From contig JAQTNH010000001.1 of NCBI GenBank assembly GCA_028713895.1, forward strand, positions 61,847-93,846: 32,000 bases of DNA. The letters run 5' to 3'. This document shows positions 1-23,098 of this stretch, piece by piece. This stretch comes from Candidatus Nanoarchaeia archaeon. GTDB taxonomy: Archaea; Nanobdellota; Nanobdellia; CSSed11-243R1. Position 1 is the first letter of the stretch. Each line of letters starts with the position of its first letter. The notes under the pieces are model-generated. The model was not told where the DNA came from. It worked only from the letters and a program-made list of their open reading frames with translations, and searched no databases. The position numbers and the translations under genes are program-made.

Positions 1-2
1 GC

Positions 3-818
3 ATGACTGAGAAGCTGATTAGAGGATATGAAATTGCCAAAAAAGTTTATGATGCAGACTACTTAGCAGTGAGATTAGTAACGGGATTTCATGCAACTAA
101 AATAGAAGCAGAACTTAATTCTTATGTTATCAACAACAAAATTGAATATTCCGAGCAGGATGTTTCTGATTTGGTTGAATATCTCAACATGAACGATTTT
201 GATGATGAAACCGAGAAGATGGGGGTTTACGTTGGCTCTTTGATTTCAATACTTACAGAAAAGAACGAGAAGCTCGGAAAACGGACTATAATCAAGATTC
301 CTGAAAATCGTTTGGATTATCTTGGAGAGTATTGCAGAAAGTTTGATGTTATCAAAGTAGGAGTGAATTACGGAACTGAAGTTTTTAGAGTTGCAAGAAA
401 AGGCAACCTTCTTTATGTTGAAGACTGTAAAGGCAATAGCTTTGCTCAAGACGCCGGTTGTATCAATGGGGATGTTAAAACAATTGTCGGAGTTAATGTA
501 AGTGGGGATTGGTTTGCTAAGAATGCCAGCCAGTTTAATGGAAAGGTTGGTGTGGTTGCAGGTATGAATGTAAGCGGGAGCGGGTTTGCTCGTATTGTTG
601 GCGAAGATGGTGAACGTGTTGAAGCTATTATTGGGGTGAATGTAACCGGCAACAATTTTGCTTTTGGTGCTGAATTCAAGGATGGGCCTGTCGGCAAGAT
701 TTTGTACAACTCACGCGAAGCAGACATTGGGTACAACAGGGTAATCGAAGGCCTAAACAGGGAATATAATCTTGGTCTAAAGAAAGTAAAAGTGCGAAAA
801 GAACGGAGTGAATCCTGA
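3..818 (+). CDS. Uncharacterised repeat protein, paralog 1 of a tandem triplet (conserved ~150-aa N-domain plus 3 copies of a ~24-aa repeat)
   Basis: ATG at nt 3; upstream context is outside the window, so 5' completeness is unproven. Aligns by eye over its full length with the next two genes (DLVEY..GKRTIIKIPENRLDYLG..CRKFDVIKVGVNYG..VF..A.KGNLLYVEDC). Stop TGA 816-818 overlaps the next ATG. No signal peptide or TM. No family recognised. Confidence 0.75.
   Translation: MTEKLIRGYEIAKKVYDADYLAVRLVTGFHATKIEAELNSYVINNKIEYSEQDVSDLVEYLNMNDFDDETEKMGVYVGSLISILTEKNEKLGKRTIIKIPENRLDYLGEYCRKFDVIKVGVNYGTEVFRVARKGNLLYVEDCKGNSFAQDAGCINGDVKTIVGVNVSGDWFAKNASQFNGKVGVVAGMNVSGSGFARIVGEDGERVEAIIGVNVTGNNFAFGAEFKDGPVGKILYNSREADIGYNRVIEGLNREYNLGLKKVKVRKERSES
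453..674 (+). repeat. Intragenic tandem repeat, 3 x ~72 nt (24 aa) in paralog 1
   Basis: aa 151-224: GCINGDVKTIVGVNVSGDWFAKNA / SQFNGKVGVVAGMNVSGSGFARIV / GEDGERVEAIIGVNVTGNNFAFGA. Confidence 0.8.
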
Positions 819-1720
819 TGACCCTCGCGGCACAGGTCAACTTTGGATTAGAAGAACTCGCAGGAATAGACTGTGGAGTAAAGAGAAAAGAACTGTACAA
901 TGAACAGAGCATGATTGAAAAGCTGATGAATGCTTATTACAAAAAGGATGAGTCTCATCTTAAATTGAATTACAATGAACAAAATATTGCTGACCTGGTT
1001 GAGTATGCTGGAATGCAGGAATATGATGGTGATGACTCAAAAAGATGCGGAATCTATGTGGGCGAACTTATTACAAATCTTACTGAAAAGAACGAAAAAC
1101 ATGGGAAACAGACAATAATTGACATACCTGAGAATAGGCTGGACTGGCTTGGAAGTGAATGCAAGAAATTTGATGTCGTCAGAATAGGAGTTAATTATGG
1201 AGACCATGTTTTTGAATATGCAAACAAAGGCAACCTGCTTTATGTTGAGGATTGTGAAGGATCATGGTTTGCTGAGGGGTTTGGTAACGATGGTGGAAAA
1301 GTTGGTGCGATTGTCGGAATCAAGGTAGGAGGATCTTGGTTTGCTGAATTTGCAGGCAATTTGGGCGGAAAAATCGGAGCTATTGTCGGAGTTAATGTAA
1401 AAGGCGGCTGGTTTGCTGCGAATGCCGGCAATGATGGCGGGAAAGTTGGTAATGTTATTGGGAATAATGTAAGCGGAAATCTGTTTACTCAGTATGCCAG
1501 TTCTTACGGCGGAAATATTGGAAATGTTGTAGGAGTGAATGTAAGCGGGGACGGGTTTGCCGATATTGGTGCTGGCTGTAATATTGGAAAGATTGGCAAG
1601 ATTCTTGTAAATTCACGCAATGCAGATATTGAATATAACAGAATCGTTGAGAGGCTGAATAATGAATATAATCTTAATCTAAAAAAAGTAAAAGTAAGAA
1701 AAGAACGGAGTGCGTCTTGA
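818..1720 (+). CDS. Uncharacterised repeat protein, paralog 2 (N-domain plus 4 full repeats and a degenerate cap, basic tail KKVKVRKERSAS)
   Basis: ATG 818-820 shares one nt with the upstream TGA (TGATG). GGAG at 805-808. Same N-domain and repeat consensus G-x-x-G-G-K-[VI]-G-x-[IV]-V-G-V-N-V-x-G-x-x-F-A as paralog 1. Confidence 0.8.
   Translation: MTLAAQVNFGLEELAGIDCGVKRKELYNEQSMIEKLMNAYYKKDESHLKLNYNEQNIADLVEYAGMQEYDGDDSKRCGIYVGELITNLTEKNEKHGKQTIIDIPENRLDWLGSECKKFDVVRIGVNYGDHVFEYANKGNLLYVEDCEGSWFAEGFGNDGGKVGAIVGIKVGGSWFAEFAGNLGGKIGAIVGVNVKGGWFAANAGNDGGKVGNVIGNNVSGNLFTQYASSYGGNIGNVVGVNVSGDGFADIGAGCNIGKIGKILVNSRNADIEYNRIVERLNNEYNLNLKKVKVRKERSAS
1283..1570 (+). repeat. Intragenic tandem repeat, 4 x 72 nt (24 aa) in paralog 2
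   Basis: aa 156-251: GNDGGKVGAIVGIKVGGSWFAEFA / GNLGGKIGAIVGVNVKGGWFAANA / GNDGGKVGNVIGNNVSGNLFTQYA / SSYGGNIGNVVGVNVSGDGFADIG. Confidence 0.85.
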
Positions 1721-2742
1721 TGACCCTTGCAGCACAAGTAAAATTTGGTCTTGAAGAGCTTACTGGGATAGATTCAGGATTAAAAAGAAAGGGAATAATC
1801 AAGGATAGTTTGTTAGAAAAACTGATTGAAGCGCAAAAAAAATGTGATGACTCCTATCTTAGATTGGGATACAATGAGCAGGATATTACAGAATTGGTTG
1901 AATATGCTGGAATGCAGGAATATGATGACAAAGAGTCTGAAAAATGCGGGGAATACATAGGCAGACTCATAACAAATCTCACTAAAGAGAACGAGAAACT
2001 TGGAAAAAGGACAATCATTGAGATTCCTGAGAACCATTTGGATTGTCTTGGGTTATATTGTCGTAAATTTGACATTGTCAAAATTGGAGTCAATTACGGA
2101 AATGATGTTTTTAGAGGCGCAAAAAAAGGCAACCTTCTTTATGTTGAACGATGCGAAAGGGATAATTTTGCTTATTTTGCTGGCTGTGATGGTGGTAATA
2201 TCCGGATAATCGCTGCAAAGGAAGTCAATGGAAAGGGATTTGCGGATTTTGCTGGAAGCAGGGGTAATGTTGACGTGATTGCTGCGAAAGAGGTCAATGG
2301 AGTCTGGTTTGCATGGTCTGCTGGAGAAAAGGGTGGCAACGCAGGGATGATTGTTGCAAAAGAGGTCAATGGGGGAAGGTTTGCAGAGTTTGGTGGATTC
2401 AAAGGCAATGTTGGAATAATCGCTGCAAAAGAAGTTAATGGGAACGAATTTGCAAACAATACTGGAGACGAGGGTTATGTCAGAATAATTGCTGCAGAAA
2501 TGGTTAATGGAAACGATTTTGCAGCAGGTGCTAAAAGTGTTGAACACATTTACAAGTGTGGGGAAAAAGCAGCGGAAGTTTATGTTAATGCTATGAAAAA
2601 AGCCAGAGATGAACTCGCAAAGTATAATATTGACTGGGGACTAAAATTCAAGAAAATTAAGATAATCAAAAAAATAAAAGAAACTGCCTTCTTTAAAAAA
2701 GAAGGTAAGCTGCCAAGAAAAATTATTCTACCTCAACGGTGA
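1720..2742 (+). CDS. Uncharacterised repeat protein, paralog 3 (N-domain plus 5 repeats of variant unit I-I-A-A-K-E-V-N-G-x-x-F-A, distinct Lys-rich C-terminus)
   Basis: The track starts at TTG 1717. I prefer ATG 1720 because it recreates the junction TGATGACCCT seen at 816-825. The N-domain is conserved with paralogs 1 and 2. The C-terminal ~70 aa (KFKKIKIIKKIKETAFFKKEGK) is unlike the other two. Confidence 0.8.
   Translation: MTLAAQVKFGLEELTGIDSGLKRKGIIKDSLLEKLIEAQKKCDDSYLRLGYNEQDITELVEYAGMQEYDDKESEKCGEYIGRLITNLTKENEKLGKRTIIEIPENHLDCLGLYCRKFDIVKIGVNYGNDVFRGAKKGNLLYVERCERDNFAYFAGCDGGNIRIIAAKEVNGKGFADFAGSRGNVDVIAAKEVNGVWFAWSAGEKGGNAGMIVAKEVNGGRFAEFGGFKGNVGIIAAKEVNGNEFANNTGDEGYVRIIAAEMVNGNDFAAGAKSVEHIYKCGEKAAEVYVNAMKKARDELAKYNIDWGLKFKKIKIIKKIKETAFFKKEGKLPRKIILPQR
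2182..2532 (+). repeat. Intragenic tandem repeat, 5 x 69-72 nt (23-24 aa) in paralog 3
   Basis: aa 156-272. The repeat is also visible at DNA level (ataatcgctgcaaaggaagtcaatgg / gtgattgctgcgaaagaggtcaatgg / atgattgttgcaaaagaggtcaatgg / ataatcgctgcaaaagaagttaatgg / ataattgctgcagaaatggttaatgg). Confidence 0.85.
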
Positions 2743-4108
2743 GCACGTTTGAGGATTCCTGCCTTTCAACGCCCTTTGCATCCTTGTACTCAACTGTGGT
2801 CGGCGGGAAGTTCATGTTCCCGAGGACCTCTACGCTTGTGCGCACTTTGTAGCTGAAGATTCTCTCTTCCTTTGGCTTCAGGTGCTCGAGCTCCCATTTC
2901 ACTGCCTTCTGCCTGTCCTTTGTCGTCACTGTGCCAGGCACTGTGCCGAATTCCCGGATTTCCTTGATGAACGCAGGAAGGAAGTCGTAAATCTTCACGT
3001 TCTTCATCTCGCCATTTGTAAGGTTCTTGACGTGAACCTGAAGCTTCAGGTCCATGAATCCTGCGTGGCGCCTGTAATCAACAAGCTCCTTCTTTATTTC
3101 CATCTTGCGCGTGAAATACCAGACTGCAATCACAGCAAGTATTATCACGAACGGAATCGCGATTATCGGGACATAGGTTATTTTGTAGCCGACTGTTGTT
3201 GCCTGCCCTGCAGGAACTGTTATCTGCCATGAAACTGTTTTCCCGTCATATGTGTATCCTGCTGTGCGGTCGTCCACAAGATATTTTTCAAGCCCTGAAA
3301 TTGCTGAAGTTATTGTGCAGGCTGCATCTCCTGTGCCTGCGTTGTTAACATCTGCTGAATATGTTCTTCCCAGAAGCCCGCTCTTTGCATTCTCAGTGAC
3401 TGTGCAGGTTGAAAACTCAGGCACATTGAACACCCCTTTTGTGTCAAGGTAAGTGTCCTGCATGATTATCCTGAGCGTGTAATTCAAATTTCCAATTGAG
3501 TTGTCAGGAAGTTTCAGCCCTGAAATCCTGTACTCGTTCGTGCCCTTAAGCACCTTGATTATTGGCAGCGCTCCGAAATCAAAATCAGAAATTAATGAAA
3601 CTGTGCCTGTTGGCTCGGTTTCTGTGGGGTTTGTCAGTGAAAAAACAATGTCAAACGCATTCCGCGGGTCAATTGCCGAGGGTTCGGTTCGCAAATCTGT
3701 CAGCCTGACATTTGAAAATTTGTATGCCCTCCCGGGTGTTGGAAGAATATTTGCGTCAAGAATTACCGAATAGTTGTATTTTACCCCGTCCTTATCAAAA
3801 AGAATCGGCTTGATGAACAAAGTTCCGGGAGTGGTGCCGTACGGGATTGTGTACAGGATATCAACGTCCTGCGTCTGTCCAGGGTCGATTGTAAAGTGGG
3901 ACGGATTCATGTCTGCCGCAAGGAAAATGCTTATGTACAGAGATTCGTCGCCATTGTTCTGGAATGTGACAAGGTAATGGAGAATGTCCCCTTCTTTGCC
4001 TTCACGGTCCAGGTACTCTGTGCCGTGTGTTAGTTGAGCATTGGCGTAGCCGAATGCTGCGATTAATAATATAGCTAAAACGATTAACTTTGATTTTACC
4101 CCTACCAT
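2723..4108 (-). CDS. Secreted, membrane-anchored surface protein with CARDB/NEW3/DUF11-like beta-sandwich signatures (COG1470-like)
   Basis: I prefer the internal ATG at 4108 (MVGVKSKLIVLAILLIAAFGYANA|Q, a signal-peptide-like N-terminus) because a TATA-like box at 4131-4140 is centred ~27 nt upstream. Second TM IIAIPFVIILAVIAVWYF. Motifs YLVTFQNNGDESLYISIFL..IDPGQTQDVDILYTIP and HVKNLTNGEMKNVKIYDFLP. The 3' end overlaps paralog 3 by 20 nt (convergent). Confidence 0.6.
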   Translation of the reverse strand: MVGVKSKLIVLAILLIAAFGYANAQLTHGTEYLDREGKEGDILHYLVTFQNNGDESLYISIFLAADMNPSHFTIDPGQTQDVDILYTIPYGTTPGTLFIKPILFDKDGVKYNYSVILDANILPTPGRAYKFSNVRLTDLRTEPSAIDPRNAFDIVFSLTNPTETEPTGTVSLISDFDFGALPIIKVLKGTNEYRISGLKLPDNSIGNLNYTLRIIMQDTYLDTKGVFNVPEFSTCTVTENAKSGLLGRTYSADVNNAGTGDAACTITSAISGLEKYLVDDRTAGYTYDGKTVSWQITVPAGQATTVGYKITYVPIIAIPFVIILAVIAVWYFTRKMEIKKELVDYRRHAGFMDLKLQVHVKNLTNGEMKNVKIYDFLPAFIKEIREFGTVPGTVTTKDRQKAVKWELEHLKPKEERIFSYKVRTSVEVLGNMNFPPTTVEYKDAKGVERQESSNVLTVEVE

Positions 4109-4130
4109 ATCTAACTGTATTGCATAATAG

Positions 4131-4140
4131 TTTATAAATT
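4131..4140 (-). promoter_or_regulatory. TATA-like box for the 4108 surface-protein gene (leaderless spacing)
   Basis: tttataaatt, centred ~27 nt from ATG 4108. Confidence 0.45.
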
Positions 4141-4160
4141 TGTTGAAATACGGCTTTAAC

Positions 4161-4172
4161 AAAATTAATAAC
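4161..4172 (+). promoter_or_regulatory. TATA-like box for the GT2 gene (leaderless spacing)
   Basis: aaaattaataac, centred ~29 nt upstream of ATG 4195. Confidence 0.4.
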
Positions 4173-11852: not shown

Positions 11853-12158
11853 ATGGGCTTCATGAAAGGATTTATATTGGCGGGAGCGTTTATAGCACTG
11901 ACAATTGCATTCGGAAGAAACAGCCTTCAAACTGCAATACCTGGACTCGTAGTTCTGTTTATGTTTGGTATGGTTGGCGGCAAATTTGGCTTGATACCAG
12001 GACTGGGATACGTACTTGCATTTGTTGCGCAGTTTTTAATAGGGGGTATACCACTCATTGGCTCATTTTTAATGAATAATGTCATGACGTGGGGAATTGG
12101 TTCAGTCGTTGTAGCAGTATTTTCTGGGGCTGATATTTTTATGGGCGAAAAGTCCTAA
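11853..12158 (+). CDS. Small membrane protein (3 hydrophobic segments)
   Basis: GAGGT at 11840-11844 precedes the ATG. Gly- and hydrophobic-rich sequence. No family recognised. Confidence 0.55.
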   Translation: MGFMKGFILAGAFIALTIAFGRNSLQTAIPGLVVLFMFGMVGGKFGLIPGLGYVLAFVAQFLIGGIPLIGSFLMNNVMTWGIGSVVVAVFSGADIFMGEKS

Positions 12159-12170
12159 TTTTTTCTTTTT
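12159..12170 (+). terminator. Oligo-T tract (archaeal-type terminator candidate)
   Basis: ttttttcttttt lies immediately after the TAA at 12156-12158. Confidence 0.4.
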
Positions 12171-12281
12171 GTTAAACCGCAAGGCTTTAAAAGGGATTAT
12201 TTTAAGATGTATCATGGTTGAGCCCAAAATAGAAGAAATTACCAAAAACCTGCAGAGAACAGTGGAAAAGATTATGATGCA

Positions 12282-12569
12282 ATGCCAAGCATAGGCGCAA
12301 AACTGAGCGAACCAGAGGCATTAACGCAGGAGCTAATAGGCTGGGCGATTTTCCATAAAATCCCTGGCAATCTTGTTTCCAACAGCCAGTTTTATTTTTT
12401 GTATAACACAGAAATAAATGTTTATTCCAGCAGCGCAATCGCTTTAAAGGATACAGAAAATTTTGATGATGCGGCACAGCATATAATGAGCTACCTTGTT
12501 AAGAGAGACGAGGTATACGCCAAATATCTGTGCCCTGAGAGGATTCTTTTTCAAGAAATACAAACGTAA
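12282..12569 (+). CDS. Hypothetical protein, possibly the 3' part of a frameshifted gene
   Basis: 95-aa ORF with no motif recognised. A 26-codon ORF (12208-12288, MVEPKIEEITKNLQRTVEKIMMQCQA) ends just inside it in another frame. Confidence 0.3.
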   Translation: MPSIGAKLSEPEALTQELIGWAIFHKIPGNLVSNSQFYFLYNTEINVYSSSAIALKDTENFDDAAQHIMSYLVKRDEVYAKYLCPERILFQEIQT

Positions 12570-12614
12570 GCTGCCTGAAAAGAGCCATATTACTGGACAT
12601 AGTGGACAACACCC

Positions 12615-12629
12615 TAAATAATAATAAGG
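12615..12629 (+). promoter_or_regulatory. TATA-like box for the LAGLIDADG gene
   Basis: ctaaataataataag, centred ~28 nt upstream of ATG 12650. Confidence 0.4.
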
Positions 12630-12649
12630 TCTTAATGCTTTATCTTTAA

Positions 12650-13933
12650 ATGAGAGCTTGGCATTTATGGGATTTTTCCCCAAACTTATTTACAATATCA
12701 TTAAATGATGAATTCATCGATTGTCTTAAAAATAAATTAAATAAGACTTCTTTTTATAAATTAGGAAAAAATATAAATTTAAATTATGTGTGTATACACC
12801 AAGCCTTTAACAGAAATAGATTCCCTTTATACATCATTCTAAAAATATGTAACTTTTTGAAAATTAACTATAAACGATTGGAGGAAAATGTTATATCATT
12901 TACATGTTACAATGGAAAAAATAGAGTAACTCTTCCAGTATTGCCAATTATCGAATCTAATGAATTGTATGAATTAATTGGACATCTATTAGGAGATGGG
13001 TATCTATCTAAAAAACTTGGCCAAATGAGCAATTATACGAATACGTCAAAAGAGCTGATTGGCAGGTTTATATTTTTGATAAATACGGTTTTTGGAAAAG
13101 TACACGTAGGTGTATATCATGATAAACGGTTTAATGCTGATACGATAGGTATACCCAAAGCATTAGAATTTATTTTATTTGAAATGTTTCCTGAATTAAA
13201 AGAAGGAAAAATGCCGCAAAATCTACTTGGATCACATCTACAATTTGCCTCTTCATTTATTAGCGCATTTGCAGATGACGAATCTTGCGTAACAACATCT
13301 GCGATAGTTTTAACTTCTATCAACAGATTACTGCTTTTAGACATAAAGAAACTTTTACTAAGTAGACTAGGATTCAGCGAAGATACAGTTACAGAAGTAA
13401 AAGCAAAAAAGAATCTATTTATATTGTCCATTAAAGGTAAGGGATTAAAAAAATTTAGCGAAGCGGTAGGTTTTGTACATCCGCAAAAACGAGAGGATTT
13501 ACTGTTTGAAATAGAAAGGAAAAACGCCAATAACAAGCCTAAAAGTGCGGGGCAAATCAAAGCAAAAATAACTCAGCAGCTGAATCTGCCAAAAACATCC
13601 AAGGAATTGTCCATAGTATTAAAAATCCAAAGACAGAATATAAGTAAGCACTTAAGGGAATTAAATAGTAAAGGTTATGTAGGAATACACTCTATTTCCA
13701 AATACAAAGTTCCGAAATGGATAAAATTAAAGGAGTTTATCCCTTTAACAGACAATTATAAAAATAATATCTTAAATCTTTTATTGACTAAGCGAGATTT
13801 AAGAACAAAGCAAATATCTGATTATCTAGTATTAAGCACGGATGAGACACTAAGATACTTACATCAGCTGAGAATCTCTGACAAAGTGTTTTATAAAGTC
13901 ATAGGGAAAACATATTATTGGGCGTTAAAATGA
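12650..13933 (+). CDS. Free-standing LAGLIDADG homing-endonuclease-like protein with HTH/winged-helix modules
   Basis: Motif 1 LIGHLLGDGYL and motif 2 FISAFADDES, with the acidic residue retained in both. C-terminal wHTH-like segments TSKELSIVLKIQRQNISKHLRELNSKGYV and LRTKQISDYLVLSTDETLRYLHQL. No Hint/intein blocks. Strongly AT-rich. Confidence 0.75.
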   Translation: MRAWHLWDFSPNLFTISLNDEFIDCLKNKLNKTSFYKLGKNINLNYVCIHQAFNRNRFPLYIILKICNFLKINYKRLEENVISFTCYNGKNRVTLPVLPIIESNELYELIGHLLGDGYLSKKLGQMSNYTNTSKELIGRFIFLINTVFGKVHVGVYHDKRFNADTIGIPKALEFILFEMFPELKEGKMPQNLLGSHLQFASSFISAFADDESCVTTSAIVLTSINRLLLLDIKKLLLSRLGFSEDTVTEVKAKKNLFILSIKGKGLKKFSEAVGFVHPQKREDLLFEIERKNANNKPKSAGQIKAKITQQLNLPKTSKELSIVLKIQRQNISKHLRELNSKGYVGIHSISKYKVPKWIKLKEFIPLTDNYKNNILNLLLTKRDLRTKQISDYLVLSTDETLRYLHQLRISDKVFYKVIGKTYYWALK

Positions 13934-16089
13934 ATATTGAAGAACTTGAGAAATTCGGGATATCCATGAAAATTGTAGAGCTGTTTAAAGAAGAAAGAAT
14001 TTTACGATTAAATCCTCCACAACAAAAAGCAATACAGACCGGATTGTTTGATGGTAAAGATATAGTCGTAGCATCTCCAACGTCTTCAGGCAAATCAATG
14101 ATTATGACTTTAGCCTTTATAAAGAACTTATTGTCTGAAGGCGGAAAGGCAATTTATATTTCTCCACTGAAAGCATTAGCAAGTGAAAAGTATGAATATT
14201 ATAAAAACTTGTTCAAAGAATATCCGCTTAAAGTTGCAATTAGCACGGGTGATTTTGATTCTTTTGATAGAGGGTTGGCTAATAACAATATTTTGATATT
14301 AACTGTAGAGAAACTTGATAGTTTGATTCGTCATAACATTCCATGGTTGAATGAAATCAAAGTTATAATTATAGACGAAATACATCTTTTGGATGACGCG
14401 AACAGAGGGCCTACACTTGAAGTCCTGATTACGCGCCTGAAAAACTTCTGCCCAAAGGCGCAGCTTATTGCGCTGTCTGCTACAATCTCAAATGCAGATG
14501 AGATTGCAAAATGGCTCGGCGCAGAACTTGTGAAAAGCGATTATCGTCCAGTTGAACTGCATGAGGGAGTTTACATAAACGGCGAGCTTGACTTTGGCGG
14601 TAAAATTGAGAAGCTGAAGGGCAAGTCAGATGTTCCGGAAATCAGGATTCTTGAAGACACGCTTGCAAAGAACAAGTCAATGCTGCTTTTTGTTTCGAGC
14701 AGGCGCAATGCAGAAGGCTGCGCAAAGAAATGCGCTGACACAGTTGCTGCAAGCCTGAATGCTGAGGAGAAAAAAGAACTGGAAGCGCTGAGCAAGGAAA
14801 TTCTTGATGTTCTTGAAACACCGACAAAGCAGTGCGAGGATTTGGCAGAGTGCGTTAAAAGCGGAGTTGCATTCCATCATGCTGGCTTGGTTGCGAAACA
14901 GCGCAGCCTGATTGAAAATGCATTCCGAAGCAGACTCATTAAAATAATTTGTTGCACTCCAACTTTGGCCGCGGGCTTAAATTTACCTGCATTCCGCGCT
15001 GTTGTGCGGGATTTGAAGCGATTTGACTCGGAGGAAGGAATGGGATTCATTCCTGTGCTGGAGTTTAAGCAAATGTGCGGCAGAGCAGGTAGGCCAGGCT
15101 TGGATGACTCAGGACAAGGAATCGCGATTGCAAAGACAGTGAAGGAAGCAGAGGAGATTCGTGAAAAGTATATCAAAGGTATTCCAGAAGATGTTTACTC
15201 AAAACTGTCAGTCGAGCCTGTGCTGAGAATGCAGATTCTCGGACTGATTTCAACCGGAGAAATAATCGACAGGAAATCGCTGATGGGATTTTTTGCAAAA
15301 ACATTTTATGCTGTCCAGTACAAGAACCTTGACAGGATTGAAAACAATCTTGACAAGATAATGAACGAGTTAATTGGCTGGGGATTCATAAAACCTGAGG
15401 GTCAGAAGCTTCTTCCCACGCTGATTGGAAAGCGAGTTGCCGAGCTTTATATTGACCCGTACTCTGCGCACAAAATAATGGAGGCGCTGAAGAAATCAAA
15501 CCAGGAGCCGCTTTACTACATCCACACAATATGTTCGTGCGTTGAGATGCGCCCGCTGCTTTACATCTCCTCGAAGGATTTTTCTGAACTGCAGCAGAAG
15601 TCGCTGAAGTTTGATGATGTGCTTCCTGAGGCGCCGTCTGCATGGGATGTTGATTATGAAGTATGGTTCCGCGCAATCAAGACAGCTTTCATGCTGAATG
15701 ACTGGATAGGGGAAAAGAACGAGGCACAGCTGTTTGATGAATATCACGAAACTCCTGGAATGCTGAAGAACAGGCTGAACAATGCTGACTGGATGCTTTA
15801 TTCCATGGGCGAAATTGCAGGACTGCTCAAGAGAAAAGAGGACCTGACTCCCTTGCGAAAGCTGCGGATAAGGATGAAATACGGCGCAAAGGAAGAGCTG
15901 CTCAATCTTCTGCGGTTCGAGGGAATCGGAAGAATCAGGGCGCGAAAGCTTTACTTCAGCGGAATCAAGAGCGTTGTTGATGTAAAGAAAATCGCATATG
16001 AGAAGCTCTCTGACTTAATCGGGCCAAAGATTGCAAAGAAGCTCAAGGACCAGGTTGTCAGCGAGGAGCAACAGAATTTGGGACAATAA
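13930..16089 (+). CDS. hel308: Hel308/Ski2-like superfamily 2 DNA helicase
   Basis: Motif I SPTSSGKS, II DEIH, III SAT, IV-V HHAGL and TPTLAAGLNLPA, VI QMCGRAGRPG. C-terminal HhH-like LRFEGIGRIRARKL. ATG 13930 (the track starts at TTG 13918) forms an ATGA overlap with the upstream stop. Confidence 0.9.
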   Translation: MNIEELEKFGISMKIVELFKEERILRLNPPQQKAIQTGLFDGKDIVVASPTSSGKSMIMTLAFIKNLLSEGGKAIYISPLKALASEKYEYYKNLFKEYPLKVAISTGDFDSFDRGLANNNILILTVEKLDSLIRHNIPWLNEIKVIIIDEIHLLDDANRGPTLEVLITRLKNFCPKAQLIALSATISNADEIAKWLGAELVKSDYRPVELHEGVYINGELDFGGKIEKLKGKSDVPEIRILEDTLAKNKSMLLFVSSRRNAEGCAKKCADTVAASLNAEEKKELEALSKEILDVLETPTKQCEDLAECVKSGVAFHHAGLVAKQRSLIENAFRSRLIKIICCTPTLAAGLNLPAFRAVVRDLKRFDSEEGMGFIPVLEFKQMCGRAGRPGLDDSGQGIAIAKTVKEAEEIREKYIKGIPEDVYSKLSVEPVLRMQILGLISTGEIIDRKSLMGFFAKTFYAVQYKNLDRIENNLDKIMNELIGWGFIKPEGQKLLPTLIGKRVAELYIDPYSAHKIMEALKKSNQEPLYYIHTICSCVEMRPLLYISSKDFSELQQKSLKFDDVLPEAPSAWDVDYEVWFRAIKTAFMLNDWIGEKNEAQLFDEYHETPGMLKNRLNNADWMLYSMGEIAGLLKRKEDLTPLRKLRIRMKYGAKEELLNLLRFEGIGRIRARKLYFSGIKSVVDVKKIAYEKLSDLIGPKIAKKLKDQVVSEEQQNLGQ

Positions 16090-17988: not shown

Positions 17989-18111
17989 TGGGGCTGGAGA
18001 GATTTGAACTCTCGACCACACGCATTTCAGGACTTTTCTTTCGCTGGCGTTTCTTTTCGCAAAAGAAAGGCCGCCCCAAGCGCGCATTCTACCAAGCTGA
18101 ACTACAGCCCC
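17989..18111 (-). tRNA. tRNA-Pro (anticodon GGG) with a 49-nt intron; no encoded CCA
   Basis: Hand-folded. Acceptor GGGGCUG/CAGCCCC, U8 A9, D-arm GUUC-AGCUUGGUA-GAAU (G18 G19). Anticodon stem CGCGC/GCGUG, loop UU-GGG-G..U, variable UGGUC. T-arm GAGAG-UUCAAAU-CUCUC, discriminator A. 74 nt mature plus 49 nt intron gives 123 nt. Confidence 0.85.
18025..18073 (-). other. tRNA intron at the canonical 37/38 position
   Basis: The sequence between G37 and U38 is CGGCCUUUCUUUUGCGAAAAGAAACGCCAGCGAAAGAAAAGUCCUGAAA. It contains a perfect 8-bp hairpin UUUCUUUU-GCG-AAAAGAAA (18050-18068). Exact splice boundaries are inferred from the cloverleaf. Confidence 0.7.
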
Positions 18112-18177: not shown

Positions 18178-19407
18178 ATGAAAATCCCTTTAATGAAAAG
18201 AGGACAGGACAGGGGATATGCTGTACCATTGATTCTGCTCGGGTTTTTAGGCGTGTTTCTCCTGTACATAATATTAGTTTACCCATCTGAGCGCGCAAAG
18301 CTGCTCAACATAGACACTGATAATGGAGAAGAGGTTTCGCCGTTAGGGGAAGGAACCGAGGTTCTTTACAGCAGCGGAGAGCGTTTTGAAGTCGGCAGGG
18401 CGGTTGGAAGCGAGGTTTTCAGCTGGAAACTCAACAATGCAATCGTAAGCCATGCTGCTGTGCCAAAAACTCTTGACTCCACAGCAAACAGGGTGATGTC
18501 TGCAACGCTTGTGAGCTCGGACACAGAATCTTTCAGCGCAAACAATCTTAATCTCGCAAACACAAAAGATGTTGTTGTAAAACTTAACATTGAATCAATA
18601 AAGGGAAACCCAAAAATACAGATTATACTCAACAAGACAATGATTTATGAAAAAGCCGCGGCAGCAGGAGAGACAAACATCCGGATACAGCCGGGGCTTC
18701 TTGATGAAGACAGCAACCCGATATATGTGAAGGTGCTTCACCAGGGAGCTGCATTCTGGAGCGTGCAGTCAGTCAGTTTCAACTCTATAAATATTGACCA
18801 GTATTATTACGACCCTGAAAACTCAATAAGCCCGCAAAATGTGATAATTTCCGAGAACAATTACAGGGGCAGCAGAGTGAACCTTATATTCAATGTCACG
18901 AGCGCTGTAACAGACGGGGAGCTTAACATAGCAATCCAAAAGCCAGGAGCAGCGAAGACTGTTGTATGGAGCGGAGCTCCAGAACTCGGGGTTGCAACAG
19001 CTTCATTTGACATTGACCAGATTGGAATCGGGGAAAACATAATCTCATTTGAGGCAAAGAAAGGCGGAGAGTACGCAATTGCGAACACAACACTGAAGTT
19101 CTTCGCTGAGAGCCAGCCTCCTGCAATAAAAACATATTCCTTTGACATTGAAGCCTCAAAACTGTATTCAGGCAGGGTTATAATGCTCGGCGTGAAAGTT
19201 GACAGGATAATTGAGCCAGGCTCATTGTTCTTCACAGTAGGAGCAAGCCCGCTGTCCTATTACTTCCCGTCAGCAGACATAGCTTCAGGAGCATGGAGCT
19301 ACACGCAGCTTGACAAAGGAAAGCTAAAGGAGCTCGGGAACAAGATAATACTTGACTCTGTCAACGGACGCTTCAGCATAAGCGGATTGATGATAATATT
19401 AAAGTAA
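18178..19407 (+). CDS. N-terminally anchored extracellular protein, first gene of the surface operon
   Basis: N-terminus MKIPLMKRGQDRGYAVPLILLGFLGVFLLYIILVY. The alternative ATG 18193 fits TTTAAAAA at 18165-18172 as a leaderless start. Sequons NKT, NVT, NTT. No family recognised. Confidence 0.7.
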   Translation: MKIPLMKRGQDRGYAVPLILLGFLGVFLLYIILVYPSERAKLLNIDTDNGEEVSPLGEGTEVLYSSGERFEVGRAVGSEVFSWKLNNAIVSHAAVPKTLDSTANRVMSATLVSSDTESFSANNLNLANTKDVVVKLNIESIKGNPKIQIILNKTMIYEKAAAAGETNIRIQPGLLDEDSNPIYVKVLHQGAAFWSVQSVSFNSINIDQYYYDPENSISPQNVIISENNYRGSRVNLIFNVTSAVTDGELNIAIQKPGAAKTVVWSGAPELGVATASFDIDQIGIGENIISFEAKKGGEYAIANTTLKFFAESQPPAIKTYSFDIEASKLYSGRVIMLGVKVDRIIEPGSLFFTVGASPLSYYFPSADIASGAWSYTQLDKGKLKELGNKIILDSVNGRFSISGLMIILK

Positions 19408-19423
19408 GGTGAAAGGTGACTAA

Positions 19424-21004
19424 GTGCCTCCAGTAAAGTTTTTTGCGAATTTAGCAGGGAAAGCAACAAAATTCGGGAGTAATGTGACTTCTAAAGCCAG
19501 CGCTGGAATGCAAAAATACCAGCAGGCAAAGCAGGCTGCTTCCCCGTATCTTGAAAAAGCTGAAGCTGCAAAAAACTGGGTCGGAGGAAAAGCAAGCGCA
19601 GTTAAAGGCGGGGTTGTTGCGGGCGCTGCTGCAGGCGGAAGATATTATGGCGCTGTGAAAGATGCAGGGCACAGGATGTTCGGAGGGCTCAGCATATTCA
19701 AGGGAGTCGGGCCTGTAATCGGGATTTTCCTCATAATTCTCCTTATCATGGTGGTGTTCTGGTTCATGAGCAAAGGCGGGCTCCAGGCAACAGGAGGGAG
19801 CGAGTACACCGCTGAAAAGCAGACTGAAACATTGTTCCAGAATGTATGGATACGCCGCGTAGAAGACTGGTTTGCAAACCCGTTCGGGGTGCGCGCAACA
19901 TCTGGCGAATATGAGGAAACATCCACAACATCGCCGACAACATCAACTGCCCCAAACCAGGCGTTCACTGTCGAGATAAAAACAACGCCCAGCATAGTTC
20001 AGTATAATACAAACGGAATCACTGCGGTCATAACAACAAAGAACGAGGGAACAACCATAATAAAAGAACTCAAACTTAATATCACTTCAGAACAGCCGGC
20101 TGGAAAATGCCTCAGATTTGACACGCTGCCAGCAGGCTGCAGCCCAGTTGTAGCCGGAGAATACATCTGCAATATAAGCGATGTTTACCCGCTGTCTTCA
20201 AAACAACTTGTGATTTCAGGCGGATACATTGATGAAACCTGTGTCGGTGACACATTCGGAACTTCTTTTGACCCTGCAATACCTGTGTCTGTTTTTGTAA
20301 ATGTAAAGGGCAGCACATATTATCCTGCGTCCTCAAGGCTTGCTGTTGAGCGAATAAAAACAGCTTACGGCACTCTGCTGATACAGAACTCGCTTCTCAT
20401 GCAGCAGCAGCGCGGGGCAATTTACCAGACAGGCACAGCGCTGACTCTTGACATGGATGCTGGAGAACAGCCAATCCTTGACAGTGTTGACCAGGGCGGG
20501 CTTTTATTCAGCTGGACAAATGTGGGCAACGGCAAGATGGACTCAACCAAAAACCCGTTCCTTTTCATAGTAACTCCAGACAGCTTTGGGCAGTGCATAT
20601 TCCAGGGATTAGGTTCAACACAATATGAGTACACGCTGGGCCAGAGTGTTGATGTTGTATGCGACAACACTGCTGTGCTTGGAAGCAAGTACAAGTGCAT
20701 AGTATGTGATGCTTCACTGCAAACTTCATGGTGCCAGGAAGGCAATCCAGTGTACCAGCAGATAGAGAAGAGCGCTGGAAGCATAAAAGAAAGCTTTGAC
20801 TGGGCATGCGGACTTGTAGGAAACGGCTATCATGTCTGCGCAACAAACGGGCTCACACAGGAGTTCGGCCTGATGACATGCCCTCTTGTGTTCACAGAAC
20901 CAATAAATGCAAACAGGATTACAAGGTATGTAACTGCGGTTGCATTGTACCCATACGTAGTTGAAGCGCCATACTCAACAGTGCAGGCATTCAGACAGGT
21001 GTAA
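19424..21004 (+). CDS. Single-pass membrane protein: ~95-aa K/A/G-rich N-terminal tail, TM, Thr/Ser linker, CARDB-like segment, Cys-rich ectodomain
   Basis: GTG start 4 nt after GGTGA (19415-19419). TM VGPVIGIFLIILLIMVVFWFM. Linker TSTTSPTTSTAP. ITAVITTKNEGTTIIKELKLNITSE. 12 Cys, all after the TM. Confidence 0.7.
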   Translation: MPPVKFFANLAGKATKFGSNVTSKASAGMQKYQQAKQAASPYLEKAEAAKNWVGGKASAVKGGVVAGAAAGGRYYGAVKDAGHRMFGGLSIFKGVGPVIGIFLIILLIMVVFWFMSKGGLQATGGSEYTAEKQTETLFQNVWIRRVEDWFANPFGVRATSGEYEETSTTSPTTSTAPNQAFTVEIKTTPSIVQYNTNGITAVITTKNEGTTIIKELKLNITSEQPAGKCLRFDTLPAGCSPVVAGEYICNISDVYPLSSKQLVISGGYIDETCVGDTFGTSFDPAIPVSVFVNVKGSTYYPASSRLAVERIKTAYGTLLIQNSLLMQQQRGAIYQTGTALTLDMDAGEQPILDSVDQGGLLFSWTNVGNGKMDSTKNPFLFIVTPDSFGQCIFQGLGSTQYEYTLGQSVDVVCDNTAVLGSKYKCIVCDASLQTSWCQEGNPVYQQIEKSAGSIKESFDWACGLVGNGYHVCATNGLTQEFGLMTCPLVFTEPINANRITRYVTAVALYPYVVEAPYSTVQAFRQV

Positions 21005-22185
21005 TGATGAAAAAAGAAATTATAACCATCGGACTCTGCATGATTTTTGTAAGCATGATTCTAGGATGCTCATTCCTCGGCGGAGGCTCAAAAAATGAAA
21101 CCAAGCTCACAGTGGAGCAGGGAATCGGTGTTGTAGGAACTTTGAATGTTGACGAGCTCAACCCAGGGCTTGACGGATACATTTCCCTGACAGTGCGAAA
21201 CAACCTTGGCGGAGAAAGCGCAAGCAAGGTTTATGTTTCGCTGGATAATGTTGAGCCTTTCAAGATTTTCGAGTGCGGCGCATTCCATAATGTCTCGTCT
21301 GAAATAAGGGACTGCACAGGAGAATTCTCGCTTGACAAATACCTGCCGTACAGGAGCCATGGAGAAAGCAAGATGTTCCCTGGACAGGAACTGCAGTTCT
21401 ACTGGAGGCTGAGAGCGCCGTCAAAAACAGAGATATCAAACATTGCACTGCGCCACCCGATTTACTATGATTTGGAATATGATTACAGGACAACTTTTAC
21501 GCAGAACATAATATTCATGTCACAGCAGGAAGTCCTGCGACGAAGACAGGCTGGAGAAACATACCAGGTTGAAGGGGAGGCAAGCAGCGGAGCAGGTGAA
21601 TTAAGAGTCACCGGAGCAACGCAGCAGCCAGTCACATACCAGTTCATGAACCCCTCAGACATAACAACAACTGAAAGCGAATTCCCGTTCTCGCTCAGCT
21701 ATGCTGTAACGAACGAGGGCAAAGGGCTGCCGCTGTCGGATGTTGTTGTTTTGGTTGAACTTCCGCGCGGCAAGTTTGATTCAGCCAAAAAGGACATTGT
21801 GGCAGACAATGAAACAATGTCGCAGTACGGCTGGATGAAGTTCAAAGACATGGAAAGCGAGGGAACCAACTGCAGCACAGGCTCAGGCGAAAAAAACTGC
21901 TCAACATGGATACAGGAAACATACGGCAATGAGTTTAACTCATTGTTCGGAACGGCAATAACAGAAGACAGGCTGCTTGTAAAAATTGTGAAGCGCACTG
22001 ACTTCATAAACGAGTTTTCACTGTACCTTCCGCTCAAGCTGGTTGCAGGAGACAGGACAAGCGGGATGACTGCACTGAAAAACCTCCAGATTCCGATACA
22101 GATATACGGATTCAAAATGCACAATATGTACAGGTATTTCACAGAAGGAAGCTCGGAAATAGCGGTATTCCCTGTGAGAGTTTAA
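21004..22185 (+). CDS. Putative lipoprotein with CARDB-like domain
   Basis: MMKKEIITIGLCMIFVSMILGC|SFLGGG (lipobox). GYISLTVRNNLGGESASKVYVSL..PGQELQFYWRLRAPSKTE. AGGTG at 20997-21001. The ATG overlaps the upstream TAA (TAATG), and a second ATG at 21007 is equally possible. Confidence 0.7.
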   Translation: MMKKEIITIGLCMIFVSMILGCSFLGGGSKNETKLTVEQGIGVVGTLNVDELNPGLDGYISLTVRNNLGGESASKVYVSLDNVEPFKIFECGAFHNVSSEIRDCTGEFSLDKYLPYRSHGESKMFPGQELQFYWRLRAPSKTEISNIALRHPIYYDLEYDYRTTFTQNIIFMSQQEVLRRRQAGETYQVEGEASSGAGELRVTGATQQPVTYQFMNPSDITTTESEFPFSLSYAVTNEGKGLPLSDVVVLVELPRGKFDSAKKDIVADNETMSQYGWMKFKDMESEGTNCSTGSGEKNCSTWIQETYGNEFNSLFGTAITEDRLLVKIVKRTDFINEFSLYLPLKLVAGDRTSGMTALKNLQIPIQIYGFKMHNMYRYFTEGSSEIAVFPVRV

Positions 22186-22245
22186 ACAGCAAAATGGTTA
22201 TAATCACCAATTATATTAAGAATAATAATTAAAGGAGGTCAAAAA

Positions 22246-23094
22246 ATGAAGAGATTAGCATTTATGGCAGTAGCATTGTTTGCACTGATATTTGCCCTTG
22301 GATGCACTGGCGGTGATAAAACCGAAGAAGCCGGTACAGGACAAGGCTACTCGATGACAGTATCTCCGACTGACACGATAACAGGGAGCCCTGTTACAAT
22401 TGACTTGAGGCTTGAAAACATATTCGACAAGGACATGACAGGTGTCACTGTACGAATGAAGGATGTCTCGTCAATATACAACAAGGACGGAGAACTGACG
22501 ACAGGAACAACAATAATCAAGGGACAGACATACCCAGTAATAATGACGCTGTCTTCGGACAGAGCCGGAACAATTTCTGGAAAACATGTTGAAGTCTGCT
22601 TTGACTATGACACAGAGTATTACTTTGACATAGGGCTCAAATCAAAGTCACAGGCAGCAGAAGAGCTTGCTGTTGAAAGCGGAGCATCAAGCGGACCGCT
22701 TGGAGTCGCAGTAGTCGGGCTTGAAAATGTTTTCTATGAAAACTTGAAAGGCACCGGAGCACTTACACTGTCAAATGAATGGCAGGGAACGATAAAAGAG
22801 ATTAAATCTGTCTCAGCAGAATTCCCAGTCGGGAGCTATGTCCGCAGCGGAGCGATATCAATCTCAGGATGCACAGGAACAACAGCTGGCGGAGTAACGA
22901 CAGTCAAGAGCACAGACACAGGATGCAGCATTTTGAGCAATGATGTGGCAATAGCAAACGGACTGACTCTCAGAACAGAAGTCGATGTTAACGCAACACA
23001 GACAGCCCTGACAGTCGAGAGAACAGTTGGAAATGTAATCTACAACTATTGCTATGACATTGACTTGCCAACGTTGACAATCAAATCGGTGTAA
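22246..23094 (+). CDS. Putative lipoprotein with CARDB-like domain
   Basis: MKRLAFMAVALFALIFALGC|TGG (lipobox). AGGAGGT at 22233-22239, 6 nt before the ATG. SPVTIDLRLENIFDKDMTGVTVRM. Confidence 0.7.
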   Translation: MKRLAFMAVALFALIFALGCTGGDKTEEAGTGQGYSMTVSPTDTITGSPVTIDLRLENIFDKDMTGVTVRMKDVSSIYNKDGELTTGTTIIKGQTYPVIMTLSSDRAGTISGKHVEVCFDYDTEYYFDIGLKSKSQAAEELAVESGASSGPLGVAVVGLENVFYENLKGTGALTLSNEWQGTIKEIKSVSAEFPVGSYVRSGAISISGCTGTTAGGVTTVKSTDTGCSILSNDVAIANGLTLRTEVDVNATQTALTVERTVGNVIYNYCYDIDLPTLTIKSV

Positions 23095-23098
23095 TAAG

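Follow-up and report, generated by a model that had tools for sequence, protein, structure and literature searches.

Which proteins do the three consecutive paralogous genes at this locus encode, and what might they do together with their neighbours? The genes occupy the first 2,742 positions of a stretch of 32,000 nucleotides (the window) from a Candidatus Nanoarchaeia archaeon (contig JAQTNH010000001.1, positions 61,847 to 93,846). The paralogs constitute an undescribed DPANN family encoded in tandem arrays, next to genes for a dedicated ATPase and a peptidase-like adaptor whose probable task is to handle them.

Organisation of the locus

An earlier analysis of the letters alone (the sequence-only reading) had described the three genes as a triplet touching the window edge, and had suspected further copies upstream. 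We found a fourth paralog, A (277 aa, two repeat units), directly upstream, which makes the array a quadruplet. With the triplet at its 3' end, an operon of six genes encodes, in this order, a MoxR-type AAA+ ATPase, a protein with an HExxH motif and a vWA domain, and paralogs A, B, C and D; the first two genes lie upstream, outside the window. All six genes of this locus (L001) share a strand and either overlap by 1 nt or are separated by no more than 28 nt, and a TATA-like element (TTTATAAA) is found in the 149 nt that precede the ATPase gene. A Fic gene lies upstream.

Paralog B (P0004, PHC66_04975) is truncated by the window edge. Its residues 29-300 are encoded at positions 1..818 (+ strand; family HMM E-value 2e-74), and the ORF of the gene within the window spans 3..818 (+). 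The ATG at nt 3 corresponds to Met30 of the 300-aa protein, which in fact starts 85 nt upstream of the window edge. The protein has three full 24-aa units in register (residues 178-249; 447..662, +) and a basic tail, KKVKVRKERSES. The start codon of paralog C (P0001, PHC66_04970; 300 aa; 818..1720, +) overlaps the stop codon of paralog B. This protein begins with an N-terminal tag, MTLAAQVNFGLEELAGIDCGVKRKEL (residues 1-26; 818..895, +), predicted to be disordered (pLDDT 30-46), which is followed in the AF2 model by a helical domain with the family motif LTEKNxxxGK.T (residues 32-94; 911..1099, +). We rejected a P-loop interpretation of “GKRT”, which differs from GK[ST]. The predicted solenoid (residues 100-264; 1115..1609, +), delimited from the AF2 strands and the register of the units, has four clean 24-aa units (residues 153-248, nt 1274-1561), preceded by two cryptic coils and closed by a degenerate one. 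A C-terminal helix (residues 267-284, from the AF2 model) and a basic tail complete the protein (1616..1717, +).

Paralog D (P0006, PHC66_04965) has 340 aa when counted from the ATG at 1720 (1720..2742, +; ORF 1717/1720..2742). It carries five units of 23-24 aa with the variant IIAAKEVNG (residues 152-268, nt 2173-2523). Its C-terminus is basic, but longer than and different from that of the first two window genes, which both end in the tail KKVKVRKERS(E/A)S that the sequence-only reading had pointed out. The paralogs are 43-55% identical. Both gene junctions in the window are stop/start overlaps of the form TGATG, in line with the translational coupling proposed for the three genes.

A 24-residue repeat with a predicted solenoid fold

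The numbers of units previously counted in the three window genes (3, 4 and 5 tandem copies of 23-24 aa) were recovered in register, and their periodicity is strict: the best periods are 24, 24 and 23 residues in paralogs B, C and D (z = 18, 40 and 30, autocorrelation against 500 shuffles). Across the nine clean units of paralogs A-C, positions G15, V18, G20 and F23 are invariant, and N17, G8 and A24 nearly so. A unit HMM built from the window proteins did not detect units in distant members, for which an autocorrelation test was used in place of this HMM; the period of 24 residues was found in 112 of the 157 family members. The number of units climbs from 2 to 3, 4 and 5 along the operon (paralogs A-D). 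Such a gradation was rejected as a general rule, as protein lengths show no trend in an array of 21 genes. TRF identified no DNA-level tandem repeat over the repeat region, which suggests that the repeats are old, and on this result we rejected a recent expansion or slippage.

The AF2 model of paralog C (pLDDT 86, pTM 0.84) shows a disordered N-terminal peptide, a helical domain, and then periodic strands (residues 100-106, 120-126, 137-146, 161-170, 185-194, 209-218, 237-242 and 262-264). There is one strand of 7-10 residues per 24 residues; pLDDT exceeds 90 across residues 100-220, and strands are spaced by exactly 24 residues. As modelled, the core of the paralog is a regular beta-solenoid-like architecture of coils stacked at a fixed period. 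The region of about 150 aa that had been taken for a shared N-terminal domain is indeed shared, but it is not a single domain: it comprises the disordered peptide, the helical domain and the two cryptic, degenerate coils of the repeat. The suggestion of a beta-solenoid fared similarly. The predicted structure is regular and periodic, but Foldseek searches of the model against the PDB and BFVD gave no significant match to a known solenoid or to any other structure (best matches E > 0.8), the best-ranked solenoid-type matches being FhcC (E 1.8) and polygalacturonases (E 5-10).

The family was unrecognised in the sequence-only reading and stayed so in ours: sequence and profile searches with the paralogs gave no matches in Pfam, NCBIfam, PADLOC, PHROGs or the PDB. 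The repeat had also been set apart from the LbH hexapeptide, the pentapeptide repeat and bactofilins, and hmmscan agrees, with no match to Bactofilin (PF04519), Hexapep, Pentapeptide or LRR models in the three window proteins (E ≤ 10) or in 10 distant members (E ≤ 1). The paralogs do resemble bactofilins, LbH, pentapeptide and pectate-lyase-like beta-helices and LRR in their periodic coil, their small and beta-branched residues, their fixed Asn and aromatic positions, and their disordered termini. They differ by the period of 24 residues, where bactofilins have about 18-20, LbH 6/18, pentapeptide repeats 5/20 and LRR 20-29 with LxxLxLxxN, and by the absence of Pfam matches and of a significant Foldseek match.

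A conserved N-terminal tag

The tag has around 25 residues, with a core Φ-x-x-L-x-G-Φ and usually acidic residues nearby. The core motif occurs near the N-terminus of 125 of the 152 full-length members. How strongly the tag is conserved relative to the rest of the protein varies between arrays. In an array of 20 paralogs it is by far the most conserved region (pairwise identity 77/63%, vs 15-55% elsewhere), and the solenoid region within one array shows just 15-30% identity among paralogs, against 63-77% for the tag. In the operon of the window it is about as conserved as the helical core (72% and 70-77%, respectively), and at a further locus (L011) its 44% is above most of the protein but below the helical core (50-54%). 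Codon identity is not elevated in the window tag, where the fraction of identical codons is 0.50 as in other regions. This points to selection acting on the peptide and not on the DNA, and led us to reject gene conversion as the source of the conservation.

Known signals do not account for the tag. A class III (pilin-type) signal peptide was rejected for its L-K-G-I motif, which is followed by charged residues and not by a hydrophobic helix. A double-glycine leader of the bacteriocin type (LEELAGIxxG) was set aside, given proteins of at least 300 aa and the absence of a C39/ABC exporter nearby. We also rejected a secreted or membrane protein, since there is no hydrophobic segment: the window proteins had been described as devoid of signal peptides and transmembrane segments, and with a maximum Kyte-Doolittle mean of 1.17 over 19 residues they appear cytoplasmic.

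The MoxR-type ATPase and the HExxH-vWA protein

The first gene of the operon encodes a MoxR-type AAA+ ATPase of 493 aa (L001:2289-3770, same strand as the paralogs). It matches the Pfam profiles AAA_3 (PF07726, 42.5 bits, cutoff 27) and AAA_5 (30.7 bits, cutoff 22), whereas its bpMoxR score of 15.6 bits is under the cutoff of 27. Walker A (GESGTAKT, residue 73) and Walker B ((M)VIIDEINR, residue 141) motifs are present, and the top PDB sequence match is the MoxR structure 2r44_A.

The second gene encodes a protein of 587 aa (L001:3799-5562, same strand as the paralogs), identified from its motifs and from AF2 and Foldseek. The MIDAS residues of its C-terminal vWA domain (D382-x-S384-G385-S386, T448 and D509) are invariant in eight homologs and are kept in a distant ortholog (CAZJZJ010000016.1). 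The AF2 model had 31 PDB matches in Foldseek at E ≤ 1e-3 (probability 0.96-1.00), and the matches listed are vWA-domain proteins or complexes that contain one: NorD (in the NorQ-NorD complex), copine BON1, TFIIH p44, Rpn10, TRAP and vWF A3. The pLDDT of the domain is just ~70, and no Pfam VWA sequence match was found, the best being DUF58 (E 0.066) and VWA_2 (E 0.2), each in one of eight members. The N-terminal motif H68-E69-x-G71-H72 is also invariant in eight homologs. It is placed by the model in a helix (58-74) after three strands (21-25, 31-34 and 39-42; pLDDT ~85), and the invariant D107 is a candidate third zinc ligand. There was no Pfam peptidase match, and the Foldseek matches of the model are dominated by the vWA domain. 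The N-terminal domain is putatively zincin-like, from its invariant HExxH and predicted secondary structure only.

NorQ-NorD, CbbQ-CbbO, RavA-ViaA and ATV p618-p892 likewise pair a MoxR-type ATPase with a vWA protein that has a complete MIDAS (DxSxS..T..D), encoded by adjacent genes. These pairs further share with our system a dedicated client in the same operon, and our vWA model matches the vWA domain of NorD. Here, however, the ATPase is extended at its C-terminus by ~250 residues, an N-terminal HExxH domain is joined to vWA, and the clients would be 1 to at least 21 tagged repeat paralogs instead of a metalloenzyme. “Metallopeptidase + VWA-like” proteins of COG3864/DUF2201 also adjoin MoxR genes, and have the same HExxH-then-vWA architecture, but Pfam DUF2201 models did not match our protein. 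The pair of group 2.2 jumbo phages has a MoxR gene followed by an N-terminal HExxH fused to vWA (Iyer et al. 2021, PMC7824862); ours differs in its cellular archaeal context and its client family, and no sequence similarity to phage records was detected. Ternary conflict systems combine MoxR, vWA and a fast-evolving third protein (VMAP, iSTAND, beta-propeller or FtsH), with a proposed capture of an unstructured peptide by the MIDAS (Kaur et al. 2020, PMC7159879). Our third component is unrelated to these, consisting of a helical domain and a 24-residue solenoid, and is tandemly multiplied; no effector domain besides HExxH is fused to the vWA protein, and the system belongs to DPANN archaea, whereas multicellular bacteria carry the conflict systems. 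The paralogs, which lack Pfam and PADLOC matches, do not join that class by its third components. We found no literature on the three-component system or its role.

Distribution in DPANN archaea

Using the alignment of the vWA protein alone as a query we found seven loci, all with the three-part linkage, and in all seven the vWA gene is adjoined by members of the family. Paralogs, ATPase and vWA protein are linked as well at L011, L020 and CAZJZJ010000016.1. In the latter, at least 21 paralogs follow the ATPase (34% identity, E 7e-104) and the HExxH-vWA protein (40% identity), which retains HEFGH and DSSGS. The exception is L010, where a single member lies beside a split ATPase gene and the vWA gene is absent. 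The number of tandem copies ranges from 1 to at least 21 across genomes. Carriers are nearly all Woesearchaeota/Nanoarchaeia, and the family is restricted to the DPANN lineage. Outlier records labelled “Methanosarcinales” and “Brevinema” may stem from mis-binning or from horizontal transfer. In several genomes the flanking genes encode core cellular functions (PFOR, NAD kinase, PCNA, primase, GINS, ribosomal proteins).

Possible functions of the system

We propose a three-component system of MoxR ATPase, HExxH-vWA protein and tagged paralogs in which the window genes encode the clients, a model to which we give an even chance. It builds on the gene linkage, the domain identities, the conservation of the tag and the periodic fold. 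In each client, a disordered tag would lead into a small helical domain; 24-residue coils would then form a parallel solenoid of variable length, with a C-terminal helix or tail behind it. The exposed tag would be captured by the MIDAS metal of the vWA domain, by the adjacent HExxH domain, or by both, and might be clipped at the HExxH site. The MoxR hexamer would spend ATP to remodel or release the client, which would gate its folding, its activation or its assembly with other paralogs; the product may be a hetero-oligomer or filament, or else a diversified binding set. While MoxR remodels a client, MIDAS sites are described as binding one of its acidic residues or an unstructured peptide in it (PMC9976466; PMC7159879). 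In jumbo phages, MoxR and metallopeptidase-vWA pairs have been proposed to process structural proteins and to assist in assembly (PMC7824862), and p618/p892 of ATV function in assembling a filament-containing tail (PMC7824862; PMC4124505). Several points count against the client model. Subunits of a single fixed structure would not usually vary so widely in copy number, neither the vWA nor the HExxH domain is visible to Pfam at the sequence level, and L010 combines a single member with a split ATPase and no vWA gene. Also, to our knowledge, MoxR proteins are not classical tag-threading unfoldases.

The variation in array size, together with a solenoid that diverges within an array while the tag is conserved and with the restriction of the family to DPANN, is what one might see if the paralogs were a diversifying array of recognition or effector proteins. 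These would bind, by a variable solenoid face, partners in conflicts with viruses or in the dealings of an episymbiont with its host cell, and the peptidase-vWA/AAA+ pair would process the tag as a signal for activation, sorting or export. A comparable logic is seen in effector export by tag, protease and AAA+ protein, or in ternary systems of MoxR and vWA, which with their variable third component are established predicted conflict systems (PMC7159879). We regard this as a realistic but minority possibility, given that PADLOC had no matches, that the paralogs have no recognisable effector domain (nuclease, TIR, caspase etc.), and that the bpMoxR score is below its cutoff. Moreover, synonymous sites are saturated, which with the lack of a DNA-level repeat indicates that the paralogs are old; signal peptides are absent, as is secretion machinery nearby, and the neighbours are housekeeping genes. 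In a rather unlikely extension of these ideas, a DPANN-specific pathway of tag, peptidase-vWA and AAA+ protein would mature, sort or deliver a large diversifying solenoid family (e.g., effectors or sensors at the interface with hosts or viruses), and the N-terminal peptide would be an address label that can be cleaved off and that co-evolves, genome by genome, with the processing machine.

The sequence-only reading had suggested a hetero-oligomer or filament. In its strict form, the solenoid paralogs would stack end to end into a cytoskeletal or scaffold filament, as bactofilins do, independently of the upstream genes. The regular core between disordered or basic termini and the translational coupling of the paralogs are compatible with this, yet such independence fits poorly with their strict linkage to the genes for the ATPase and the vWA protein, and in the AF2 model the helical domain and the C-terminal helix may cap both ends of the solenoid. 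Bactofilin coils have a period of roughly 18-20 residues, and not 24, and there is no Pfam bactofilin match. A short conserved N-terminal peptide is also found in bactofilins, which are beta-helical polymers (PMC12448750), but the tag described here is charged and not membrane-targeting in character. We consider self-assembly of this kind distinctly unlikely.

A structural module derived from a virus or mobile element, i.e., a provirus or a cassette for virus assembly of the type seen in jumbo phages and in Acidianus two-tailed virus, is highly improbable and was rejected: viral MoxR and (peptidase-)vWA pairs are known (PMC7824862; PMC4124505), GC is slightly lower at window positions 1-2000 (0.39 vs ~0.45) and the Fic gene lies upstream, but relatives are absent from IMG/VR viral contigs and from 50,697 phage records, neither the paralogs nor the vWA protein match PHROGs, capsid, terminase and integrase genes are absent, and the flanks in several genomes are core cellular genes.

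Implications

Both the protein family formed by these paralogs and its 24-residue solenoid repeat are new. The paralogs also belong to a new MoxR-vWA system with clear boundaries, whose client and candidate recognition tag are legible in the sequence itself; this is rare, as the substrates of MoxR proteins are mostly unknown. Capture or cleavage of the tag by the HExxH-vWA adaptor is a directly testable hypothesis, and the system could become a tractable model of client selection by MoxR/vWA machines. In some DPANN genomes, which are ~1 Mb long, tandem copies of this family take up more than 25 kb, so the genes probably matter to a lifestyle that is poorly understood. If the address-label pathway were true, it would amount to a novel type of protein-handling system and offer a new way into the biology of DPANN archaea and their hosts.

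A tandem family of predicted solenoid proteins at the end of a six-gene operon

We analysed the three genes at window 1-2742 (locus tags PHC66_04965-04975), part of a Candidatus Nanoarchaeia (DPANN) MAG. The ORFs lie on the + strand at 3..818, 818..1720 and 1717/1720..2742, and at the junctions each stop codon overlaps the next start codon (TGATG), in agreement with the translational coupling noted in the sequence-only reading. The proteins (43-55% pairwise identity) each conserve a KGNLLYVE(D/R)C motif N-terminal to in-register units of 23-24 residues. As that reading had counted, genes 1, 2 and 3 have three, four and five units, with best self-similarity periods of 24, 24 and 23 (z = 18, 40 and 30 against 500 shuffles). 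The unit consensus is x-x-A-G-x-x-G-G-K-V-G-A-I-V-G-V-N-V-S-G-x-W-F-A, where G15, V18, G20 and F23 are invariant among the nine clean units of paralogs A-C (B, C and D being genes 1-3, and A lying upstream). TRF found no DNA-level tandem repeat in the repeat region, and codons are identical at only about half of the residues identical between paralogs; the repeats are therefore old, and so are the gene duplicates. The Kyte-Doolittle mean never exceeds 1.17 in any 19-residue window, hence the proteins have neither signal peptide nor TM segment, as previously noted. The basic tail KKVKVRKERS reported for two of them belongs to genes 1 and 2.

The upstream region was inspected in Logan contig L001, which matches the window exactly across 10.8 kb. 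Gene 1 is cut by the window edge: the full gene starts 85 nt before the window and encodes 300 aa, of which the ATG at nt 3 is Met30. It directly adjoins paralog A (277 aa, two units), which confirms the suspicion that further copies lay upstream. Farther upstream come the gene of a 587-aa protein and, before it, that of an AAA+ ATPase (493 aa), separated by no more than 28 nt; 5' of the ATPase gene is a 149-nt intergenic region with a TATA-like TTTATAAA. The triplet thus forms the last three genes of a six-gene operon. Clean 24-aa units increase by one per gene from A (2) through B (3) and C (4) to D (5) along L001:5564-9223 (window 1-2742 and upstream); this may be chance or lineage-specific, since a 21-gene array described below lacks such a length trend. 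Just upstream of the operon (L001:99-1025) are a Fic-domain gene and two small minus-strand genes without assigned function, found only in this genome. A convergent gene at window 2723-4162 (-) shares 20 nt with the 3' end of paralog D; its product (461/479 aa) has a predicted TM helix and a DUF11 domain. The gene is probably unrelated, because it is not conserved beside the system in other genomes.

Predicted fold and extent of the family

The AF2 model of paralog C, built from a 9-sequence alignment (pLDDT 86, pTM 0.84), has a disordered segment (residues 1-26), helices (32-94), strands (100-106, 120-126, 137-146, 161-170, 185-194, 209-218, 237-242 and 262-264) and a C-terminal helix (267-284). 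With one strand per 24 residues across the clean units, the protein is predicted to be a regular solenoid-like stack, as the periodic unit had suggested. The shared N-terminal part was recognised correctly; it is not a single domain in the model, where its strands already include two degenerate coils.

A word-indexed search retrieved only nine relatives, and an exhaustive profile search 169 cluster representatives at E≤1e-3 (62 at E≤1e-10). All source-named members are Candidatus Woesearchaeota or Nanoarchaeia, and ten distant members had no Pfam hit. The period is family-wide: 24 was best in 112 of 157 members and 23 in 26 (median z 15).

A shared N-terminal tag

The first residues carry a family-wide Φ-x-x-L-x-G-Φ motif (median start position 7), present in strict form in 125 of 152 members; among aligned members L reaches 73%, G 74% and I/L/M 90%. 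Pairwise identity in the 20-gene array (first 40 columns) was 77% and 63% in the tag against 15-55% in the rest of the protein, making the tag by far the most conserved part. The corresponding values were 72% and 42-77% in the window operon, where only the helical core equals the tag, and 44% and 11-54% in locus L011, where the core is slightly above it. Lineages have their own versions: FGLEELAGI, LRLPGLDGMLPG and (F/L)xE(L/M)(S/T)GIEKRE. In the tag of the window paralogs, the fraction of identical codons (0.50) is the same as elsewhere; selection therefore acts on the peptide. Disordered in the AF2 prediction, common to all paralogs of one genome and different between genomes, the tag has the features expected of an element recognised by a co-evolving partner that the paralogs share.

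The ATPase and the vWA protein

The ATPase matches Pfam AAA_3 (42.5 bits, cutoff 27), with Walker A GESGTAKT and a MoxR-type Walker B, VIIDEINR; its nearest solved relative is the MoxR structure 2r44. The 587-aa protein had no Pfam hit. In an alignment of eight homologs its HExGH is invariant, as is D-x-S-G-S ... T ... D, a complete MIDAS site. Its AF2 model (mean pLDDT 66; about 85 in the N-domain and 70 in the C-domain) gave 31 Foldseek matches in the PDB at E≤1e-3, and those listed were all vWA-domain proteins or complexes with one, including NorD of the NorQ-NorD complex. In the model, the HExxH lies within a helix after a three-stranded sheet, the same order as in zincins. We obtained no fold or profile match for the N-domain, so its assignment as a putative peptidase rests on motif and topology.

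Conserved linkage across genomes

In CAZJZJ010000016.1 (28.8 kb), ATPase and HExxH-vWA genes precede 20 complete and one truncated paralog, with 4-nt overlaps. Its ATPase is 34% identical to that of the window operon (E 7e-104) and its HExxH-vWA protein 40%, retaining HEFGH and DSSGS. This contig (L017/L008; at least 21 paralogs) belongs to a deposited MAG named 'uncultured Methanosarcinales archaeon', possibly because a Woesearchaeota partner was mis-binned. The order is ATPase, two paralogs, vWA and seven paralogs in L011, and ATPase, vWA and three paralogs followed by PCNA, primase, GINS and ribosomal genes in L020. A close relative (L019) shares the 1-nt-overlap arrangement of the window operon. 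A JGI contig has at least 16 same-strand genes in tandem, similar in size to family members and without Pfam hit, membership being confirmed for the queried gene only. As an independent test, we searched GTDB species genomes using only the vWA protein as query: family members adjoined the vWA gene in all seven loci recovered, one having 9 + 10 paralogs around it. Two loci stand apart. In the first, L010:8876-11056, one member (P0022) with intact N-tag follows an AAA+ gene apparently split into 99-aa and 290-aa ORFs, with no vWA gene nearby; it may be a decaying copy.

The second is a divergent ATPase-member-vWA trio (L018, DYKD01000001.1) with bacterial-type neighbours (LPG synthase C-domain, NifS/NifU, GlmS, class-I GAPDH) in a MAG named Brevinema andersonii; its member has 585 aa and a hydrophobic TM-like stretch at its end. 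Searches of IMG/VR and phage genomes yielded no relatives, and housekeeping genes flank the system, which is therefore chromosomal.

Other features of the window

An Rfam tRNA match at 17989-18111 (-) (52 bits, 123-nt span) probably represents an archaeal tRNA with an intron; bacterial-mode ARAGORN found no tRNA in the window. The end of a 427-aa LAGLIDADG-type ORF at 12650-13933 (+), in a low-GC island (0.32-0.34; 12001-14000), overlaps the beginning of a Hel308-like archaeal helicase (13918-16089); the ORF may be a homing-endonuclease insertion. The 824-aa ORF at 27681-30155 (-), with weak sub-threshold Pfam matches to Intein_splicing (33.6 bits, cutoff 35.8) and LAGLIDADG_3, may encode an intein-containing host protein; a 585-aa AAA-family ATPase (25863-27620, -) adjoins it. 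Consecutive same-strand ORFs of 409, 526, 393, 282 and 386 aa at 18178-24259 (+), four of which were scanned without Pfam match at E≤1e-4, are another block of DPANN genes without assigned function.

A proposed client-tag-chaperone system

MoxR-vWA pairs and peptidase-vWA fusions are already known kinds. Neither Pfam, NCBIfam, PADLOC and PHROGs nor the papers searched describe the third component (a new family with a solenoid of 24-residue coils), the N-terminal tag common to its members, or the way it is multiplied in tandem in DPANN archaea; the impression of an unrecognised family was thus justified.

In characterised MoxR/vWA pairs, an acidic client residue is the sixth ligand of the MIDAS metal, the vWA protein contributes further specificity through its N-domain, and ATP hydrolysis by the MoxR ring remodels the client via the vWA domain (PMC9976466; PMC13036017). 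MIDAS capture of an unstructured peptide was proposed for ternary systems (PMC7159879). A MoxR and metallopeptidase-vWA pair has also been noted in jumbo phages, where its proposed role is the processing and assembly of structural proteins (PMC7824862), and ATV p618/p892 have a role in development of the filament-containing tail (PMC4124505).

The main rival is that the paralogs are a diversified recognition or effector set, which we consider rather unlikely. Their number is large and variable and their coils diverge fast, which fits such a set better than a hetero-oligomer or filament; coupled expression and solenoid architecture are consistent with the latter as end product. By analogy with the MoxR/vWA pairs above, we propose a client-tag-chaperone system, a reading we hold to be evenly balanced: the vWA/HExxH adaptor would capture the tag and possibly clip it, and the solenoid protein would then be released by the ATPase, either active or competent to assemble.
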